Origin: Desulfobacteraceae bacterium
GTDB lineage: Bacteria; Desulfobacterota; Desulfobacteria; Desulfobacterales; RPRI01
DNA: 64,000 nucleotides
NCBI GenBank assembly: GCA_011391695.1
Contig: JAABQB010000008.1
Span: forward strand, 2,719 to 66,718
Reading direction: 5' to 3'
This document shows positions 3 through 57,967 of the stretch, piece by piece; positions within the stretch are counted from its first letter, which is position 1, and each line of letters starts with the position of its first letter. The position numbers and the translations under genes were made by a program. The notes under the pieces were generated by a model. The model was given only the letters and a program-made list of their open reading frames with translations. It had not been told where the DNA came from and did no database searches.

Positions 3-428
3 GAAGAGAAAGTTTACAGCGAGGGTGATATAAACATCACGGTTGAACTGAAAGGATGGAAGATCAGGCCGTTTATCTGCTACGATTTGAGATTTCCGTG
101 CTGGACAAGAAATCATAACAATTCATACGACGTTGCTGTATTTGTTGCGAACTGGCCTGAAAAGCGCTCCTATCACTGGAAAACACTTCTTTTAGCAAGG
201 GCGATCGAAAACCAGTGTTATGTCATAGGCGTAAACCGGGTAGGAAAAGACGGGAACGGCTACTATCACAGCGGGGATTCATCCGTAATCGATCCTGCCG
301 GAAACATAATCTTCCGAAAGCAGGATGAAGAATCGATTTACACGGCTTCGCTCTCATATCCGGTTTTGCAGGAATACCGCAAATCCTTTCCGGCCTGGAT
401 GGATGCAGATGGATGCGGACTGCAATGA
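3..428 (+). CDS. Nitrilase-family amidohydrolase (omega-amidase/YafV-like), 5' truncated by window edge
   Basis: Frame is open from base 3 (EEKVYSEG...PFICYDLRFPCW). Contains the nitrilase ICYDLRF nucleophile motif and ARAIENQCYV. Confidence 0.9.
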   Translation, partial: EEKVYSEGDINITVELKGWKIRPFICYDLRFPCWTRNHNNSYDVAVFVANWPEKRSYHWKTLLLARAIENQCYVIGVNRVGKDGNGYYHSGDSSVIDPAGNIIFRKQDEESIYTASLSYPVLQEYRKSFPAWMDADGCGLQ

Positions 429-1498
429 TTAGAACTGAGCTTGAAAGAAAAATCCTTCACGGCCTTGCTCTGGAATGGGAGAATGCCCTCTATCTTCTTG
501 ATTCAAAATACCGCGAATTGATGCGGTTGCCTGCCTTCAGCCTGAAAAATATGAAAAGAAGGCTGGGATACTGGTCGGGCGATAAAAATGAGATCTGCAT
601 AAACCGGGAATATGCATTATCGCGCAACTGGGATTCTGTAAGGCGAATATTGCTTCATGAGATGGCTCATCAGCTTGCCGAACAGGTTTTCGGAGCTCAG
701 CAGACAGAAACTCCTCACGGGCCATTGTTCCGGAAAGCCTGTTATCTTTTAAGGGCCGATTATAAGGCATCTGAAGAATATATATCCGATGACGGCAACT
801 CCGGTATGATGGGGCGGATAAAGAAGCTTTTTGCCCTTGCGGAAAGCAGTAACCGGAACGAAGCCGAATCTGCCATGAGAAAAGCTCATGAACTGGCGGC
901 AAAATACAATATTGAAATTCTTGCACAAAACACAAACCGCAATTTCACAAGCGTATTTGCAGGAACTCCCGGTCTTAAGCATCCCCGTGAAGAATATTTT
1001 CTTGCCCAGCTTCTGAGGGATTACTATTTTGTCTGGACCATCTGGGTTCCCGCATACGTGATAGAAAAGCAGAAGATGGGGCGTGTACTTGAATTGAGCG
1101 GAACACCTGATAATATCTCGATAGCCTCTTATGTCTATGATTTCATCAGGCGATACATTGATAACTGCTGGACCGAATACAACAGCCTCAACCTTCTGAA
1201 CCGTTACCGAAAGACCGATTTTGCATCGGGCATAATAAAGGGTTTTACCTCAAAATTAAAATCCAACAGCAAGATTAAGTCCCTTCCAGGGAGCGCGCTG
1301 ATAAAAGTCGGCGATCCCCTGCTGAAAGAATACGCTCAATACAGATATCCACGGACTGTATCGATTTCACGAAAAGGTTCAAGCTGCTGCGCAAATATTC
1401 TTCAGGATGGAATAAATATCGGAAAGGAGCTTGTTATTTCAAAAGGCATCACAAAGTCGGGCGGCAGTACGAGATTTCTTTTAGGGTGCAGCGAGTAA
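425..1498 (+). CDS. SprT-like zinc metalloprotease fused to DUF2786-type domain
   Basis: LLHEMAHQ (HExxH) plus HGPLF; IKKLFALAESSNRNEAESAMRKA resembles DUF2786. ATG 425 overlaps the upstream TGA (ATGA). Confidence 0.75.
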   Translation: MIRTELERKILHGLALEWENALYLLDSKYRELMRLPAFSLKNMKRRLGYWSGDKNEICINREYALSRNWDSVRRILLHEMAHQLAEQVFGAQQTETPHGPLFRKACYLLRADYKASEEYISDDGNSGMMGRIKKLFALAESSNRNEAESAMRKAHELAAKYNIEILAQNTNRNFTSVFAGTPGLKHPREEYFLAQLLRDYYFVWTIWVPAYVIEKQKMGRVLELSGTPDNISIASYVYDFIRRYIDNCWTEYNSLNLLNRYRKTDFASGIIKGFTSKLKSNSKIKSLPGSALIKVGDPLLKEYAQYRYPRTVSISRKGSSCCANILQDGINIGKELVISKGITKSGGSTRFLLGCSE

Positions 1499-51360: not shown

Positions 51361-51435
51361 GGGCGGTTAACTCAGCGGGAGAGTGCTACCTTCACACGGT
51401 AGAAGTCACTGGTTCAAACCCAGTACCGCCTACCA
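51361..51435 (+). tRNA. tRNA-Val (CAC)
   Basis: GGGCGGTTAACTCAGCGGGAGAGT; anticodon arm CTACC-TTCACAC-GGTAG; ends CCTACCA. Confidence 0.95.
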
Positions 51436-51491: not shown

Positions 51492-52475
51492 ATGTTCAGG
51501 ACCAGAATAACCGAGTTGCTGGGAATTCAATATCCGATTATCGGCGGGACCATGATGGATATTTCGCTGGCCCCATTCGTGGCTGCAATTTCCAATGCTG
51601 GCGCGCTGGGCATTATCGCCTCGGCAATCTTCAAAGACCCGGAGAAGCTTCGTCTGGAAATCAGGAAAACCAGGGAATTGACCGATAAACCGTTCGCCGT
51701 AAATATCAATCTCTTCCCCCAGTTGATGCCGCCCGATAACCGCGCGTTTCTCGATGTGCTCTCCGCCGAGGGGGTAAGAATAGTCGAGACATCGGGCTAT
51801 CAGGCTCCGGTAGATCTGGTGACACTCTTCAAGGAATACGGCATGACCTGGATTCACAAATGCGTCGGGGTGCGTTACGCCAGGAAAGTGGCTTCGCTCG
51901 GCGCAGACGCCGTAACGGTTGTGGGATATGAAAATGGCGGGGCAACGGGGATATTGAACATCACCACGCTGGTGCTGGTGCCGTCGACGGTCGATGCGGT
52001 TCAGATTCCGGTCATCGGCGGCGGTGGCGTTGCTGACGGACGCGGACTCTACGCCGTTCTCTCGCTCGGTGCGGAAGCAGCCATAGTAGGCTCGCGCTTC
52101 GTACTTTCCGACGAATGCCCGGTGCATCCACATCTGAAGCAGGCGCTTTGCGAAGCCGACGAACTAAGCACCGACCTGATCATGTTCTCGGTCGGTTTCA
52201 CGCATCGCGTATGGATGAATGAGCCGGCGAAAAAGACCCTTGAAATCGAAAAAAGAGGGGGTTCGCTTGAGGAGATACTCCCCTACGTTTCCGGCGAAGC
52301 GGCGAGGAAGATGTACCAGACCGGCGATTTGAACGCGGGAACCATTTCCATATCACAGGGAATAGGCATTCCCAAAAAAATCATGCCAGTACGGGATATC
52401 ATCGAAGAGATGATCGGTCAGGCGCAGACGATACACAAGCGAATGACCCAAATAGGAGTTGGTGCAGGAATGTAA
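51492..52475 (+). CDS. Nitronate monooxygenase / FabK-like flavin oxidoreductase
   Basis: RITELLGIQYPIIGG, KPFAVN, GYENGG, GGGVADGRGL, GSRF. Confidence 0.9.
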   Translation: MFRTRITELLGIQYPIIGGTMMDISLAPFVAAISNAGALGIIASAIFKDPEKLRLEIRKTRELTDKPFAVNINLFPQLMPPDNRAFLDVLSAEGVRIVETSGYQAPVDLVTLFKEYGMTWIHKCVGVRYARKVASLGADAVTVVGYENGGATGILNITTLVLVPSTVDAVQIPVIGGGGVADGRGLYAVLSLGAEAAIVGSRFVLSDECPVHPHLKQALCEADELSTDLIMFSVGFTHRVWMNEPAKKTLEIEKRGGSLEEILPYVSGEAARKMYQTGDLNAGTISISQGIGIPKKIMPVRDIIEEMIGQAQTIHKRMTQIGVGAGM

Positions 52476-52525
52476 ACAGCCCGATGGCCATGACTAAATC
52501 ATTCATATCTGACAGGGAGGGATTT

Positions 52526-52804
52526 ATGAAGAGAATTCTTATTTTGACATGTGCGGTTTTCTTTGTTGCCGCGATCGCTTTCGCGGCAGGACCTAAGACT
52601 TATCAGGTGACCGGGCCGGTTCTTGAAGTTAAGGGAGATGTGATAGTTGTCGAAAAGGGAAAAGACAAATGGGAAATCACCCGTGATGCCTCCACCAAGG
52701 TAACCGGTGATTTGAAGGTGGGTTCCAAAGTGACAATCGAATATACCATGAAGGCGACGACCGTCGAAGTAAAGGAGGCAAAGCAGGCCGCACCGAAAAA
52801 GTAG
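52526..52804 (+). CDS. Small exported beta-barrel (OB-fold-like) protein
   Basis: GGGAGG RBS, AFA signal peptide, alternating beta strands. Confidence 0.75.
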   Translation: MKRILILTCAVFFVAAIAFAAGPKTYQVTGPVLEVKGDVIVVEKGKDKWEITRDASTKVTGDLKVGSKVTIEYTMKATTVEVKEAKQAAPKK

Positions 52805-52965: not shown

Positions 52966-52994
52966 TTGACAGGCAAGCGTCTCCCCGTTACACT
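52966..52994 (+). promoter_or_regulatory. sigma70 promoter of the HEAT/HD-GYP operon
   Basis: TTGACA-17-TACACT. Confidence 0.7.
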
Positions 52995-53056: not shown

Positions 53057-55273
53057 ATGAATGATTTCAAAGGGAAAACGGGCCTAAACCCTTCATCGGT
53101 TGGGTCAATGCAGTTATTGCATATCATTACTGCCCTGAACCTGATCAGGATGAATCTTGGGATGTACCCGCCCGGCCACTCCCGAATTACAGAAAGCGTT
53201 GATTATGCATTTGATTTGATACAGAAGATCCTTCAGTGGAAGGTCGAATTGTTTATTGGTTTTGCCGGAGACACAATAACGTTCGGTGAAACCGCACCGG
53301 ATAAAGAAAAGAATAATTCCGTTTTCAGGGATTATGCTCACTGCCTGAACAATCTCCGTATTGTCTCTTTCACCATGCACCATGACTTGAATAAGAAAGA
53401 CCTGCTGGAGTTCAATCGAATTTTGACTTCCAAACCGGCCGATATCTGGGCCATGGGTAAAATCGAATCGGTATTTTCCCGTTCCGGCATCAAAGGAATC
53501 AAGGTAAAGGTCATCGATGCGGATTCCTTTCGTCCGGAGGAGAAGAAGGAGATCATCCAGACCAAGGTCGATCAGAAGGCAAAAGATGATCTTTTCTGGC
53601 AGGAATTCTTTGTCCGTCAGAAGCCAGAGGAGTTAAAAAGGAGTCCAAGCGACGGCATCCCGACGGATCAGGGAAAACCGGACACGGTTGAGGCCATCAG
53701 TCTTCTCAACCAGCAGCGGGAAAATTGGCCTTCGGCCGTCACCAGCTATGAGAAGATGCTTAATGAATATTTTTCTGAAATACCAAAAAGAAAACCTATA
53801 AGCACTGAAAAGTATGCAACACTGATCGGCGTCAACGCCCTTGTCAATGATCTAAATCCAGAATTAAAAAACCAACTTATCGATGTCGTGGAGCAACAGT
53901 TCAATCTTCACTCCGATACAGCGCTCATTGAGGAGAATTTGAAGTGCTTTCCCGATGCCGTATTCATGGATATTATCCGTCGGACAAATGAAAGAGGGGC
54001 TCAGATCTCTCCTGCTCTCGTCAATCTCCTCAAAAAAATGGCCGGCATCCATGAAGCAACCGTTCCAACAGACGAGCCAAAGGGAAAGGATTTTTCATCC
54101 GAGGATATGGAAACCCTTTTCAAACGCGAACAATATGAGAATTATGTATCTGAAGACTACGAAAGGTTATTGAAAAAGGCGGCGGGAACCTCCTCTTCCG
54201 GCAAAGATATCGATGAATCTCAATTCCCTCTCCGCAATTATCTGAAAACCCTTACCCATGAACATGTCGATTTCCAGATCTGTCAATTGATCCATTTCAT
54301 AATCGACGAGGTATCGAAAGAAGACTACCTATCAAGTTCCGAGAAGCTGAAAAGATCCATACCCGAACTTCTCAAAGCGGGTCGATTCTCATTTCTGATA
54401 ACCGTCATGGAGACCCTGCGCCGTCATGCAATTGAAAAGCCCGTCGAAATTATTCGCCAGAAAGCGCTGTCCCTTTTGGGTTCACTCTCGGAAAAGGAAA
54501 CCATAGCCAGGTATGTTGCACCGTTTATCCTCAAAGGAACAGAGGAACCCGCTGTGCTGACTCAATTTCTGATCTCAAGCAGTGTGCAGAACATATCCTG
54601 GCTTTTCGATCTTTACCTTGATCCGAAGGTGCCCTTGTCGGCAACGATTATCGAAATCATGAAAGGCTTTGGAAAAAGCGCGACCGAGGAGGCTGCAAAA
54701 CGACTGCCTGATCAGGATTCAGAAACAATAACACGTCTGCTTACGTTTATACGCGAAGCGGACGACAGATCTGTTTCGTCATCACTGAGGAATCTCTTCA
54801 ATCACGACGATTGGCCGGTGAGGAGAGAAATTATCAAGACACTCATTCAGTTTAACGATCCTGCTGTCATCGAACTTTTACAAAGAAGCCTTAAGGCCAG
54901 AGATCATAACGAGGTTTTGGAGGCCATCGGCCTGTCCTGCAGCTACCGGGTCGGTGATATGCTGAATGATCTGACATCCATGCTCAAGACCTTTGTCATT
55001 CGCGAGGAGGATGCAATACTTAATGAATGGATTGTCAGTGAACTTATGAAAACAGGACATCCGTCGGTTATTCCTCATTTGGAGAGAATTGCAGCGACAT
55101 GGTTCACCATCTCCCCGAAATATCTTTCCAGGATGAAAGTCACACTCTACAGGTATCTCCACCATTTTCCGAAAAATCAGATAAAGGAGCTTCTGCAAAA
55201 AGGGAAGAAATCCCGGAATGAGGAGATCAGGACGATCTCGGGAAAAATTTTGAAAGCGAGGGATAAAAAATGA
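53057..55273 (+). CDS. Large protein with C-terminal HEAT-like repeats
   Basis: 738-aa ORF; helical repeats such as LRNLFNHDDWPVRREIIKTL and LQRSLKARDHNEVLEAI. Confidence 0.75.
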   Translation: MNDFKGKTGLNPSSVGSMQLLHIITALNLIRMNLGMYPPGHSRITESVDYAFDLIQKILQWKVELFIGFAGDTITFGETAPDKEKNNSVFRDYAHCLNNLRIVSFTMHHDLNKKDLLEFNRILTSKPADIWAMGKIESVFSRSGIKGIKVKVIDADSFRPEEKKEIIQTKVDQKAKDDLFWQEFFVRQKPEELKRSPSDGIPTDQGKPDTVEAISLLNQQRENWPSAVTSYEKMLNEYFSEIPKRKPISTEKYATLIGVNALVNDLNPELKNQLIDVVEQQFNLHSDTALIEENLKCFPDAVFMDIIRRTNERGAQISPALVNLLKKMAGIHEATVPTDEPKGKDFSSEDMETLFKREQYENYVSEDYERLLKKAAGTSSSGKDIDESQFPLRNYLKTLTHEHVDFQICQLIHFIIDEVSKEDYLSSSEKLKRSIPELLKAGRFSFLITVMETLRRHAIEKPVEIIRQKALSLLGSLSEKETIARYVAPFILKGTEEPAVLTQFLISSSVQNISWLFDLYLDPKVPLSATIIEIMKGFGKSATEEAAKRLPDQDSETITRLLTFIREADDRSVSSSLRNLFNHDDWPVRREIIKTLIQFNDPAVIELLQRSLKARDHNEVLEAIGLSCSYRVGDMLNDLTSMLKTFVIREEDAILNEWIVSELMKTGHPSVIPHLERIAATWFTISPKYLSRMKVTLYRYLHHFPKNQIKELLQKGKKSRNEEIRTISGKILKARDKK

Positions 55274-56409
55274 GTTCCGCAGAGTTTCAAAAAACGATGA
55301 GCAGGATGGTCCCCCAGTTCACTGCGGCCGTTCAGAATGCAGGGATCTATCCGGACAACCATCCGCAGTCCCTTTCCTATATCCAGGAGACCTATCACGT
55401 AATGGAGGAGCTGTTTGAAGTAAAAGAAAAAATAACCCTCCTTCTCATTGGTGACAGCCTCATGTCAGATAATCGACCACTGACCATTACCGGCTCCTGT
55501 GAGACGGCCTTTGCCCAGATCTTTAGAAATAATGAGATAGAGCGTGTAACCTTCATCAAAGGTCTTACCCTTCTCCAGCTTAAGGAATTTATCCGGAACC
55601 TGTCTTCGGCAAGTGTTTCGGACATGCCTTCAATACGATATATCAAGTTCGGAAAACTCGAGATCAAGGAGCGTGAGGATCGGTACAAGGATCATGACGA
55701 TTCGCACGCAGCTGAGATCGACACGATTCACGACATGGAAACAAAGACCACGGACGAGAGAATTAAAAATATCTACCGGGAAGTCCTCGGTGGGGGGAAA
55801 ATCAACCTGGAAGACACAAGCGAGATTATCAGTCTTTTTATGGACAATCTCCACAGGGAGTCAAATCCTCTTCAGCTTCTCGCCAAAACAAAATCGAACG
55901 ACGAATACACGTTCACCCACACGGCAAATGTCGGCATCCTGACGCTGTTTTTCGCCGAATATCTCGGATTTAAAGGATCTTACCTCAACAATATCGGAGT
56001 GGCAGCCATTCTCCATGATACAGGTAAGGTCACGACTCCCGACAAGGTCCTTTCAAAACCGGGGCCTCTTACATTCGACGAGCGGGAGGAGATGGAAACG
56101 CATGCGATCAAGGGCGCTTTCAACCTGATGGAACAGGCAAATATACCCAATATTGCCGTTCTTGTTGCTTTCGAACATCACATGAAATATGACGGCACCG
56201 GTTATCCCCGCATCAAGGGCGATTGGGAACAGAATATCGTAAGCCAGATGATCTCTATCGCGGACGTGTACGATGCACTGCGGACGACGCGGCCGTACCG
56301 ACATGATCCTGTGCCGATGGACCAGATTATCCAGATCTTCATAAGTGGAAGCGGTACCAATTTCAATCCATATCTCGTCGAACGGTTTCTGAACCTGGTC
56401 AATAAATAA
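55270..56409 (+). CDS. HD-GYP domain phosphodiesterase
   Basis: DEYTFTH, LHDTGK, HAIKG, EHHMKYDGTGYP, ADVYDAL..RPY. ATGA overlap with the upstream gene. Confidence 0.92.
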   Translation: MSSAEFQKTMSRMVPQFTAAVQNAGIYPDNHPQSLSYIQETYHVMEELFEVKEKITLLLIGDSLMSDNRPLTITGSCETAFAQIFRNNEIERVTFIKGLTLLQLKEFIRNLSSASVSDMPSIRYIKFGKLEIKEREDRYKDHDDSHAAEIDTIHDMETKTTDERIKNIYREVLGGGKINLEDTSEIISLFMDNLHRESNPLQLLAKTKSNDEYTFTHTANVGILTLFFAEYLGFKGSYLNNIGVAAILHDTGKVTTPDKVLSKPGPLTFDEREEMETHAIKGAFNLMEQANIPNIAVLVAFEHHMKYDGTGYPRIKGDWEQNIVSQMISIADVYDALRTTRPYRHDPVPMDQIIQIFISGSGTNFNPYLVERFLNLVNK

Positions 56410-56650: not shown

Positions 56651-57073
56651 TTATTCTGTTTTATGCCAATTTAAGACTTTGAAGTTCTCGAACAATTTGA
56701 AATCGTGAGTGTTCCGCGTGATCAGAATTAGATCATTAACTCTCGTGATTGCCGCGATCTGACCGTCCACAAAAGACGGCATCTTCCCCTGCATGGATAG
56801 CTTTGACCTCTGTTCCGCATGCCATTCTGCCGCCCGTTCATCATATGGAAGAATATCCACGTTCCTCAGTACGACATCCTCTAAATATGCTTTAAGCATC
56901 TCACGCTTACGGGAAACAGGAAGCCGAAGGCAGCCGTACAGTAGTTCATGCCATACCGGAGCAGCCGTCGCAATTTCGTCTTGATGTTTTTCGAGCATTG
57001 CTATCACATACCGGTCGGGGTTCACTTTCACAGCTTCAGATAAAACGTTTGTGTCAAGCAGGTATTTTATCAT
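56651..57073 (-). CDS. vapC: VapC-family PIN-domain toxin
   Basis: YLLDTNVLSE, ELLYG, DGQIAAI, LITRNTHDF. Confidence 0.92.
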   Translation of the reverse strand: MIKYLLDTNVLSEAVKVNPDRYVIAMLEKHQDEIATAAPVWHELLYGCLRLPVSRKREMLKAYLEDVVLRNVDILPYDERAAEWHAEQRSKLSMQGKMPSFVDGQIAAITRVNDLILITRNTHDFKLFENFKVLNWHKTE

Positions 57074-57351
57074 GAAAAGTCGACCTCCCGGCCTGAGAAA
57101 TCATCTCTAATGCTTTCAAATTCTTCTCCGGTAACAACCACACCTTCTTTTTCCACGTTTTTCCGCCAGGAATTCAATGCACTCCAGTATCCTTCTCTTT
57201 TCCGGTTCAGCCTTTGGTAATCTTTAATGGACAACAAAACAGCTACGGGCCTGCCATGCCGGGTCAGCTTGACAGCTTGTCCTGTTTCCACGGAATGAAT
57301 GAGCGATGTCAGCTTGTTTTTGGCATCGACTATCGTATACTGCTCTTCCAT
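57070..57351 (-). CDS. Phd/YefM-family antitoxin
   Basis: YTIVDAKNKLTSLI..VE.G..V.LTRHGRPVAVL; overlaps the toxin start. Confidence 0.92.
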   Translation of the reverse strand: MEEQYTIVDAKNKLTSLIHSVETGQAVKLTRHGRPVAVLLSIKDYQRLNRKREGYWSALNSWRKNVEKEGVVVTGEEFESIRDDFSGREVDFS

Positions 57352-57880: not shown

Positions 57881-57967
57881 TGGTGCCGAAGCGGGGACTT
57901 GAACCCCGATGGAGAACTCTCCACTAGACCCTGAACCTAGCGCGTCTACCAGTTCCGCCACTTCGGC
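57881..57967 (-). tRNA. tRNA-Leu (CAG)
   Basis: GCCGAAGTGGCGGAACTGGTAGACGC; anticodon arm CTAGG-TTCAGGG-TCTAG; long variable arm; ends GCACCA. Confidence 0.95.

Follow-up and report, generated by a model that had tools for sequence, protein, structure and literature searches.

A HEAT-repeat protein and an HD-GYP protein with a common uncatalogued N-terminal domain are probably two subunits of one second-messenger signalling enzyme in a Desulfobacteraceae bacterium

In many anaerobes, members of this phylum among them, c-di-GMP is hydrolyzed mainly by HD-GYP enzymes, most of whose N-terminal regions are unassigned and whose regulation is poorly understood. In the window analyzed here, a 64,000-nucleotide stretch of contig JAABQB010000008.1 from a Desulfobacteraceae bacterium, a gene encoding an HD-GYP protein (P0002) directly follows a gene encoding a HEAT-repeat protein (P0001), and the locus raises the question of whether the two products are independent proteins or subunits of one enzyme. 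An earlier note on this DNA had described the genes as coupled, and both open reading frames were found, with the stop codon of P0001 overlapping the start codon of P0002 in the sequence ATGA, an arrangement that couples their translation. The positions of the genes and their parts are given in Table 1. The candidate promoter listed there is weak evidence, since shuffled sequence would be expected to contain just as many such sites as the region does. Homologs were collected for P0001 (n = 69, identity 41-99%) and P0002 (n = 603).

Table 1. Positions in the window of the P0001/P0002 gene pair and its predicted parts.
Feature	Coordinates	Strand	Basis
Candidate sigma-70-type promoter, TTGACA-17-TACACT	52966..52994	+	Consensus scan, 10/12 matches; 63 nt upstream of P0001 start
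P0001 gene, N-domain/HEAT-repeat partner	53057..55273	+	ORF, 738 aa
N-domain, HEAT-side subtype, P0001 residues 17-152	53105..53512	+	hhalign, AF2, invariant columns
P0001 middle region, conserved, all-helical, residues 205-335	53669..54061	+	AF2 helices 210-328, pLDDT ~65-84
P0001 acidic segment, predicted disordered, residues 341-398	54077..54250	+	AF2 and column identity
HEAT/ARM-type alpha-solenoid, P0001 residues 400-738	54254..55270	+	AF2, Foldseek, Pfam
P0002 gene, N-domain/HD-GYP phosphodiesterase (predicted)	55270..56409	+	ORF, 379 aa
N-domain, HD-GYP-side subtype, P0002 residues 3-128	55276..55653	+	hhalign, AF2, invariant columns
P0002 linker and helical lead-in, low confidence, residues 132-198	55663..55863	+	pLDDT <50 at 132-160 and 183-198
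HD-GYP catalytic domain, P0002 residues 200-379	55867..56406	+	phmmer, Foldseek, conservation in 118 homologs, motif table

The pairwise BLASTP match between P0001 and P0002 is marginal and unconvincing alone (E 0.019, 19% identity over 42 residues). Profile-profile alignment of the two N-termini with hhalign, using profiles built from 118 and 60 homologs, gave a probability of 97.4% and an E-value of 1.5e-11 over 107 columns. The match is far beyond chance, because one reversed and eight column-shuffled controls gave E-values of 0.1-0.7. The three blocks that had been matched by eye in the earlier note are the residue pairs that hhalign aligns (P0001 34-44 with P0002 24-34, 66-74 with 57-64, and 97-123 with 85-111). 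AlphaFold2 predicts that helices and strands follow one another in the same order in the two N-domains, with six of the eight predicted elements in register. In P0001, where pLDDT is mostly 82-92 over residues 21-120, helices are predicted at 17-36, 42-59, 88-99, and 113-124 and strands at 64-67, 102-108, and 148-152; in P0002 (pLDDT ~70-93) the helices lie at 3-26, 32-49, 75-87, and 101-112 and the strands at 54-60, 63-66, 92-96, and 125-128. The only residues invariant across both are polar or aromatic, an Asn, a Tyr-Pro pair, and a His (N33, Y37, P38, and H41 in P0001; N23, Y27, P28, and H31 in P0002), and all are found in one loop between helices 1 and 2. Profile alignment and predicted structure together show that each protein begins with one homologous, uncatalogued α/β domain of ~115 residues, hereafter the N-domain.

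The N-domain had been described as unnamed, and by sequence it matched neither a Pfam or NCBIfam family nor a solved structure. A Pfam search with 36 N-domains at E <= 10 returned no consistent family and no GAF family match, the NCBIfam search found no family for it, and the best match of its profile to PDB sequences had an E-value of 0.78. Foldseek searches with the full-length models were dominated by matches to the HD-GYP and HEAT parts. Identity with DUF3391 was rejected: PF11871 was not matched in P0001 or P0002, in the 36 N-domains, or in the bacterium's own genome, and hhalign against 22 genuine DUF3391 N-termini gave E-values of 0.1-0.26, compared with 1.6e-11 for the positive control. 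A relationship to GAF was not supported by sequence either: both the N-domain profile and the full-length profiles stop short of the N-terminus of 4mcw.

The N-domain family comprises 2,972 cluster representatives at 50% identity, and 101 of 301 genomes sampled across the phylum, about one in three, carry the domain. In all 16 loci for which downstream DNA was available, down to 35%/43% identity, the HD-GYP-type gene directly follows the HEAT-type gene. The same order was found in 14/14 further loci with an N-domain/HD-GYP gene, including the long and short size classes, and in the four loci (4/4) found from three divergent representatives. The co-occurrence of the pair expected by the earlier note is thus without exception in the loci examined, where the HD-GYP enzyme is always encoded with its paralogous HEAT-repeat partner. 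Neither outcome that the earlier note had named as refuting its idea, non-homologous N-termini or a lack of both interaction and co-occurrence, was observed. Flanking genes differ between loci while the adjacency persists, and start/stop overlap of the two genes is frequent. Close relatives carry the pair at the same chromosomal place, with vertical inheritance across the phylum. A tree of the N-domain separates two subtypes, one per partner, with clade support of 96/96, and each subtype clade holds both size classes. As judged from this tree, the HEAT-side and HD-GYP-side N-domains are shown to be two old paralogous subtypes. One apparent fusion of a HEAT C-terminus to an N-domain-HD-GYP protein, the only one encountered (locus L037), was not counted as a Rosetta-stone case because the sequence of its HD-GYP half is garbled beyond KPG, probably through a frameshift.

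The N-domain could be a ligand or redox input that was copied onto two co-expressed outputs, which would then act in parallel and form no complex. Its invariant polar and aromatic residues are gathered in a single loop, as in a ligand site, and it is N-terminal to its outputs, like the classical sensor domains described in the survey text of Galperin and Chou (10.1101/2021.11.05.467447). N-domain/HEAT proteins also occur alone; the bacterium's own genome encodes a 720-aa paralog in which the His is replaced by Ser. Since such solitary proteins exist, an HD-GYP partner is not a constant requirement of the N-domain. However, the strict adjacency and gene order in every locus examined, the frequent start/stop overlap, and the old partner-specific subtypes run against a shared sensor, and no output activity resides in the HEAT solenoid itself. 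Because of the strict adjacency and the old subtype split, subunits of one complex fit better than two independent readers, and we regard parallel outputs as rather unlikely.

The architecture survey with an N-domain profile, a check named in the earlier note, recovered the HEAT and HD-GYP types and a third type composed of a GGDEF cyclase, an AAA_16 NTPase, two N-domain copies, and HEAT repeats. These GGDEF-AAA_16-Ndom x2-HEAT proteins speak for the explanation preferred here, since by their domain content they would tie the N-domain to c-di-GMP turnover. As an indirect test of pairing between the subtypes, one N-domain of each was expected in the tandem pairs. The expectation failed, since both copies group with the HD-GYP-side subtype in the tree, and the absence of heterotypic tandems speaks against the preferred explanation and fits the shared-sensor reading. 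The presence of the N-domain fused or adjacent to domains that make c-di-GMP (GGDEF), that degrade it (HD-GYP), and that provide a protein-binding output could also suggest that it binds c-di-GMP or pGpG itself, with the HEAT protein as an effector and the HD-GYP- and GGDEF-type proteins regulated by substrate or product. Against such nucleotide feedback, which we consider improbable, the N-domain lacks both an invariant Arg and any RxxxR/RxxD-like motif, and it has no similarity to PilZ, MshEN, or other families.

The assignment of P0001 as a HEAT protein was borne out by a HEAT_2 match (PF13646) at residues 548-624 (44.2 bits versus a cut-off of 27.7), by a predicted α-solenoid of regular helix pairs with pLDDT ~90 over residues 400-738, and by Foldseek matches to generic solenoids only, for example, SF3B1, karyopherin-beta2, PP2A-A, and alphaRep. 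No catalytic motif was found in P0001. Its middle region matched no family, and our own HMM of this region found it again in most long-class partners. The acidic segment between the middle region and the solenoid has pLDDT <50 over residues 330-365 and 375-398, and its mean column identity of 0.69-0.78 equals that of the folded parts. A segment that is predicted to be disordered yet is conserved is a candidate linear binding motif.

For P0002, the HD-GYP assignment was confirmed by an HD_5 score of 55.9 bits (Pfam cut-off 27.2), by an HD match also above cut-off, and by similarity to the Persephonella marina enzyme PmGH (4mcw; phmmer E 2.3e-28); Foldseek matches of the model were 4mcw, 4r8z, and 9rbz. 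In a comparison of the nine HD_5 proteins of its genome it is the most divergent, at 58 bits versus 103-139 for the others, and the c-di-GMP network of the genome also includes at least four GGDEF, one EAL, and at least seven PilZ proteins. The metal ligands H217, H249-D250, H278, H303-H304, and D332 show little or no variation among 118 homologs, and the K263-P-G265, G311-Y-P313, and R341-P-Y-R344 motifs are conserved. The GYP region reads HHMKYDGTGYP and retains the HH, DG, and GYP of HHExh(D/N)GxGYP, with Met in place of Glu. The earlier note had remarked on HHM, which is indeed present (H303-H304-M305), but it is not peculiar to this gene: position 305 is Met in 73 and Ile in 43 of the 118 homologs, and across the clade HH is followed by M, L, I, V, T, or Q and never by E. 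The Glu of HHE is not among the metal ligands named in the survey text (10.1101/2021.11.05.467447). HHM is a clade trait and probably not a defect, and all metal ligands are intact. HD-GYP proteins with HH followed by a hydrophobic residue form a coherent clade that has kept its ligands rather than a set of degenerate copies, which matters for genome-wide counts that require HHE.

The position of PmGH E185 is occupied in P0002 by Y213, which is invariant in the 118 homologs and is preceded by an invariant E212; the Glu or Asp of the trinuclear subfamily is therefore missing. According to the survey text, KPG and RxY[K/R] are the c-di-GMP-binding motifs, and some HD-GYPs hydrolyze cGAMP, to which the RxYQ variant is linked (Galperin and Chou, 10.1101/2021.11.05.467447). 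Whereas c-di-GMP, cGAMP, and pGpG had all been considered as substrates, RxYR and KPG favor c-di-GMP over cGAMP for the long-class P0002; short-class relatives carry RxYQ. On its motifs, P0002 is apparently an active c-di-GMP-degrading HD-GYP protein. The missing Glu of HHE, and the degenerate HD-GYPs that the same survey describes as acting through protein binding, could be taken to indicate an inactive pseudo-enzyme that acts only by binding, or the two genes could be neighboring paralogs with no functional link. We consider this very unlikely: the degenerate proteins have lost HD or HH, whereas here none of the metal ligands or substrate-binding motifs varies, and adjacency of the two genes is kept down to 35% identity.

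The earlier note had listed phage challenge among its checks, and P0002 might clear a defense nucleotide signal while the HEAT protein senses infection. The cGAMP hydrolysis that the survey text reports for some HD-GYPs (10.1101/2021.11.05.467447), the RxYQ motif of short-class relatives, and the AAA_16/STAND-like NTPases of the GGDEF-type architecture would be compatible with such a module. We find it barely credible, however, as P0002 itself has RxYR, the pair is vertically inherited across the phylum and keeps its chromosomal position among close relatives, and neither a CD-NTase gene nor an effector gene is nearby. There was no sign of phage defense in PADLOC, which gave no defense-model match: P0001 had no match, and the only similarity of P0002 was a weak one to Cas3 (E 0.002), of a generic HD kind.

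Taken together, P0001 and P0002 are probably two subunits of one undescribed second-messenger signaling enzyme. Whether the pair is, more specifically, a self-contained two-gene operon encoding a two-subunit c-di-GMP phosphodiesterase module appears to us evenly balanced. The c-di-GMP network of the genome weighs for this reading, and the homotypic tandems, the solitary N-domain/HEAT proteins, the replacement of HHE by HHM, and the divergence of P0002 weigh against it. P0002 would hydrolyze c-di-GMP, mainly to pGpG, as suggested by RxYR and by the Tyr at the Glu position of the trinuclear enzymes. The two N-domains would associate, with the invariant Asn, Tyr-Pro, and His loop as either their contact surface or a ligand site common to both, and the HEAT protein would be the non-catalytic subunit. 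Its solenoid and conserved disordered acidic segment may hold the phosphodiesterase at a target or regulate its activity, and such tethering or gating would allow local control of c-di-GMP. The broader proposal, that the N-domain is a widespread new signaling domain that recruits a dedicated non-catalytic HEAT subunit to HD-GYP enzymes and also wires GGDEF cyclases to HEAT outputs, is put forward tentatively. The analysis defines a large family, and if the complex forms, a degrading enzyme tethered to its target would provide a concrete and testable mechanism of local c-di-GMP signaling, and the N-domain would be an addition to the c-di-GMP toolkit that is present in GGDEF cyclases as well. 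If true, this would be the first holoenzyme-type organization, a catalytic subunit with a paralogous scaffold subunit, described for c-di-GMP turnover.

The earlier note could name no characterized system with this architecture, and our literature search likewise found no description of a HEAT/HD-GYP or GGDEF/HEAT system of this kind. The best sequence and fold match to the catalytic half of P0002 is PmGH (4MCW/4MDZ; profile E 5e-41, Foldseek E 1e-10), which at 369 aa, compared with 379 aa for P0002, has the same layout of N-terminal domain, helical lead-in, and HD-GYP. The N-terminal domain of PmGH is a GAF domain, to which the N-domain profile gives no match, its trinuclear site has Glu185 and HHE where P0002 has Tyr213 and HHM, and it is a single-gene enzyme for which no paralogous HEAT partner has been described. 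The binuclear enzymes PA4781 of P. aeruginosa (4R8Z) and V-cGAP3 (5Z7C) resemble P0002 in having a seven-ligand, binuclear-type site without the third-metal Glu, but differ in their REC or tandem HD-GYP architectures, canonical HHE, and lack of a HEAT partner. The Bd1817 family (DUF3391-HD-GYP, 3TM8; PA4108, VC2497), also with no HEAT partner described, has, like P0002, an uncharacterized cytoplasmic N-domain of ~120 residues before HD-GYP. In the survey text, DUF3391 consists of four strands followed by two helices (10.1101/2021.11.05.467447), whereas the P0002 N-domain is predicted as two helices followed by strand-strand-helix-strand-helix-strand. The eukaryotic PP2A A-subunit has no homology to P0001 beyond the repeat fold, and the PP2A scaffold and enzyme have no common paralogous domain; it provides a functional analogy only, as a HEAT solenoid without catalytic activity by which a metallo-phosphoesterase could be held and directed to targets.

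P0001 and P0002 are encoded by two ORFs on the same strand (see table), and both their coordinates and their coupling through an ATGA, in which the stop codon of the HEAT gene overlaps the start codon of the HD-GYP gene, match exactly what the earlier note had read from the window. The only Pfam family in P0001 is HEAT_2 (residues 548-624, 44.2 bits versus a cut-off of 27.7), and the only one in P0002 is HD_5/HD (residues 210-365, 55.9 bits versus 27.2); neither Pfam nor NCBIfam assigns a family to the first ~200 residues of either protein. The pair lies between scpB and ribF, a position common to close relatives. A vapB/vapC-like pair (Phd-type antitoxin and PIN toxin) sits between the HD-GYP gene and tRNA-Leu, and is a recent insertion, given that the close relative L003 lacks it and has ribF directly after the HD-GYP gene. 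Upstream are a nitronate-monooxygenase-like gene and a 106-aa lipoprotein-like gene, kept in L003 and missing in L001, another close relative, in which the HEAT gene comes next after scpB. Since the flanking genes are differently absent among relatives, the interval from tRNA-Val to tRNA-Leu is a mosaic of independent insertions and not one island.

Features of the gene pair, its HEAT protein and the surrounding interval
Feature	Residues	Window position	Strand	Remark
tRNA-Val		51361-51435
Nitronate-monooxygenase-like and lipoprotein-like genes		51492-52804	+
Candidate promoter of the pair		52966-52994		weak basis
P0001 gene		53057-55273	+	ORF, 738 aa
P0001 helical region	205-335			conserved, follows the N-domain
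P0001 acidic segment	341-398	54077-54250		predicted disordered (pLDDT < 50)
P0001 solenoid	400-738			confident in model
P0002 gene		55270-56409	+	ORF, 379 aa
vapB/vapC-like pair		56651-57351	-
tRNA-Leu		57881-57967

Direct BLASTP of P0001 against P0002 gave a borderline hit of 42 residues (19% identity, E 0.019). We gathered 603 homologs of P0002 and 69 of P0001, built a profile of the N-terminal 200 residues for each family and compared the two. The two profiles were aligned by hhalign with 97.4% probability and an E of 1.5e-11 over 107 columns (P0002 9-115, P0001 19-127), versus E 0.1-0.7 for one reversed and eight column-shuffled controls, and the N-terminal matches formerly picked out by eye recur in this alignment as the same pairings of residues. 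When full-length proteins were compared, the N-terminal region was the sole match. AlphaFold2 models built on the two family alignments contain a confident, compact alpha/beta unit in each protein with a common order of elements (P0002: H3-26, H32-49, E54-60, E63-66, H75-87, E92-96, H101-112, E125-128; P0001: H17-36, H42-59, E64-67, H88-99, E102-108, H113-124, then E148-152), and the hhalign register holds for six of the eight predicted elements. When 36 N-domains drawn from the two families are aligned jointly, just four positions never vary: Asn, Tyr-Pro and His (N23/Y27/P28/H31 in P0002, N33/Y37/P38/H41 in P0001), all in the loop that connects helices 1 and 2.

Searching species-representative genomes for the HEAT family retrieved 19 loci from Desulfobacterales and Syntrophales MAGs (Desulfonema, Syntrophus, Smithella). 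Three end at a contig edge, and in all 16 with downstream DNA the HD-GYP gene directly follows the HEAT gene, at spacings that range from an overlap of 1 nt to a gap of 180 nt and at identities down to 35%/43%. The genes flanking the pair are not conserved among the compared loci. Sixteen further loci were drawn from the phylum sample; an N-domain/HEAT gene lies directly upstream in 14/14 of those with an N-domain/HD-GYP gene, and two apparent singletons in this sample turned out to be paired. Three divergent HEAT-type representatives taken from elsewhere in the tree, each on a long NCBI contig whose surroundings are unrelated, likewise have an HD_5 gene directly downstream. The co-occurrence of the two proteins on which the original proposal depended, HEAT then HD-GYP, is thus borne out in all three sets. 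The pairs fall into a long class (~740-790 plus ~380-420 aa), to which the window pair belongs, and a short class (~525 plus ~455 aa). The short-class pairs L024-L029 and L036 have RxYQ, and in them DL, DH or DR replaces the DG before GYP; in L025, L026 and L028 a HEAT-like ORF of ~190 aa lies immediately downstream in convergent orientation. In locus L037 (1768-4928), an N-domain and middle region are followed by a HEAT C-terminus fused to N-domain-HD-GYP; because the HD-GYP half is garbled past the KPG motif, this probably reflects a frameshift or misassembly in that copy and not a natural fusion.

The joint N-domain profile of both families, searched against 1.84 billion entries, detected 2,972 cluster representatives (50% identity) at E ≤ 1e-3, 560 of which pass E ≤ 1e-10. 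The best 150 of these, sorted by architecture with our own HMMs, comprise about 86 N-domain plus HEAT proteins, 12 N-domain plus HD-GYP proteins, 36 short fragments and 7 proteins with two N-domain copies. By Pfam, the two-copy proteins represent a third architecture, roughly 1,420 aa long and consisting of GGDEF, AAA_16 (a STAND-like NTPase), two N-domains and HEAT_2; those that are shorter belong to the same clusters and are truncated. The survey of the shared domain proposed earlier therefore yields three architectures, and the N-domain is always accompanied by a HEAT solenoid, either within one chain or encoded by the neighboring gene. In the third architecture the GGDEF motif is mostly AGDEF and the remaining active-site elements are retained; the presence of the N-domain with both GGDEF-type and HD-GYP proteins links it to c-di-GMP synthesis and degradation. 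GGDEF-type genes are found at L030 1530-5774 and, as two genes in tandem, at L031 2050-6393 and 6896-11176; the Walker A of their AAA_16 NTPase is intact, and the NCBI label for these proteins is simply "diguanylate cyclase". In an even phylum sample the N-domain is present in 101/301 genomes and 76/201 genera, and beyond the phylum in single MAGs labeled Planctomycetota and Pseudomonadota.

Searched against PDB sequences, the N-domain profile gave no match below E 0.78, and Pfam at E ≤ 10 gave no consistent family for the 36 N-domains; against this background, a nucleotide-binding feedback domain is an unlikely identity. DUF3391 (Bd1817 family) is the usual comparison. Genuine members of PF11871 (DUF3391) occur in 12/81 genomes of the phylum, and none was found in the host genome or in the genomes where N-domain pairs were found. 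The N-domain was rejected as DUF3391, since hhalign against 22 genuine DUF3391 N-termini gave E 0.1-0.26, and 1.6e-11 for a positive control at the same settings; DUF3391 is described as having four strands and then two helices (10.1101/2021.11.05.467447). The full-length HD-GYP family profile matches Persephonella marina PmGH (PDB 4mcw), described as GAF-HD-GYP in the same survey, from residue 168, which places the GAF domain outside its reach. That survey, in which Galperin and Chou reviewed HD-GYP architectures, mentions neither the N-domain nor a HEAT partner. Full-text literature searching turned up no publication about a HEAT/HD-GYP or GGDEF/HEAT system, in agreement with the earlier note, which could name no characterized system of this architecture.

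The domain shared by the pair is undescribed and has two partner-specific subtypes. A maximum likelihood tree of 168 N-domains separates a HEAT-side clade, in which 101/102 rows are HEAT-type, from an HD-GYP-side clade (support 96/96). Each side contains both long and short classes, which places the N-domain duplication before the divergence of the classes; the HEAT and HD-GYP genes have been inherited together since. We hold with moderate confidence that P0001 and P0002 would form a complex through their N-domains, in which the HEAT protein would tether or gate the HD-GYP enzyme. The main rival, a tentative but serious one, is that the N-domain is a shared sensor on two independent outputs. 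Several observations speak for the sensor: the invariant loop is polar, and the tandem copies of the GGDEF-type proteins are not one of each subtype, contrary to what a heterotypic pair would predict. The two copies group in a clade of their own (100/98) within the HD-GYP side and originated by internal duplication, so that they are compatible with a domain that acts in twos and are not evidence for a HEAT-type:HD-type pair. The sensor is also favored by the existence of orphan N-domain/HEAT proteins, including a 720-aa paralog in the host genome (L023 1997-4159, minus strand; G000:C81), in which Ser replaces the invariant His (LYPPAS). This paralog has no HD-GYP neighbor, and upstream of it are genes for an AMP-binding ligase and an ABC ATPase; ~740-aa singletons resembling it recur in the phylum sample (E 1e-8 to 1e-12).

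P0001 is a non-catalytic HEAT protein: no catalytic motif is apparent, and Foldseek retrieved only generic HEAT/ARM scaffolds, e.g., SF3B1, karyopherin-beta2 and PP2A-A. Its acidic segment is as conserved as the folded parts (column identity 0.69-0.78), and is a candidate short linear motif for partner binding.

In P0002, the ligands of the binuclear HD-GYP site (H217, H249-D250, H278, H303-H304, D332) are invariant in 118 homologs, as are K263-P-G265, G311-Y-P313 and R341-x-Y-R344. From its sequence, P0002 is predicted to be a catalytically intact c-di-GMP-type enzyme, and it is very unlikely that the recurrent pair lacks a functional link or includes a pseudo-enzyme. The HHM that the earlier note singled out in place of HHE is present, but is a hallmark of the clade rather than a peculiarity of this gene: the residue after HH is M, L, I, V, T or Q, never E, in all N-domain HD-GYPs examined. 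The text of the survey does not list the HHE Glu with the metal ligands (10.1101/2021.11.05.467447). RxY[K/R] is tied there to c-di-GMP specificity and RxxQ/N to cGAMP; P0002 and the long class have RxY[R/K], and the short class mostly RxYQ. No defence-system match was obtained for the pair, and a defence or cGAMP role is highly improbable. Glu212 (window 55903-55905; motif D-E-Y-T-F-T-H) is invariant, one residue before Tyr213. The host genome (2.8 Mb, 98% complete) encodes at least four GGDEF domains, one EAL, nine HD_5 loci and at least seven PilZ domains, indicating that c-di-GMP is made and read in the host; P0002 is the most divergent of its nine HD_5 proteins.

Of the earlier interpretation, the conserved coupled pair, the shared undescribed domain and an enzyme that appears intact have stood, and the complex with tethering or gating may apply. 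Compared with known systems, P0002 has Tyr213 where PmGH has the aligned Glu185, and Tyr at this position is associated with binuclear centers whose hydrolysis usually stops at pGpG (10.1101/2021.11.05.467447). The HD-GYP kind of phosphodiesterase is itself known; the new elements here are its N-domain and a paralogous HEAT partner that is obligate.
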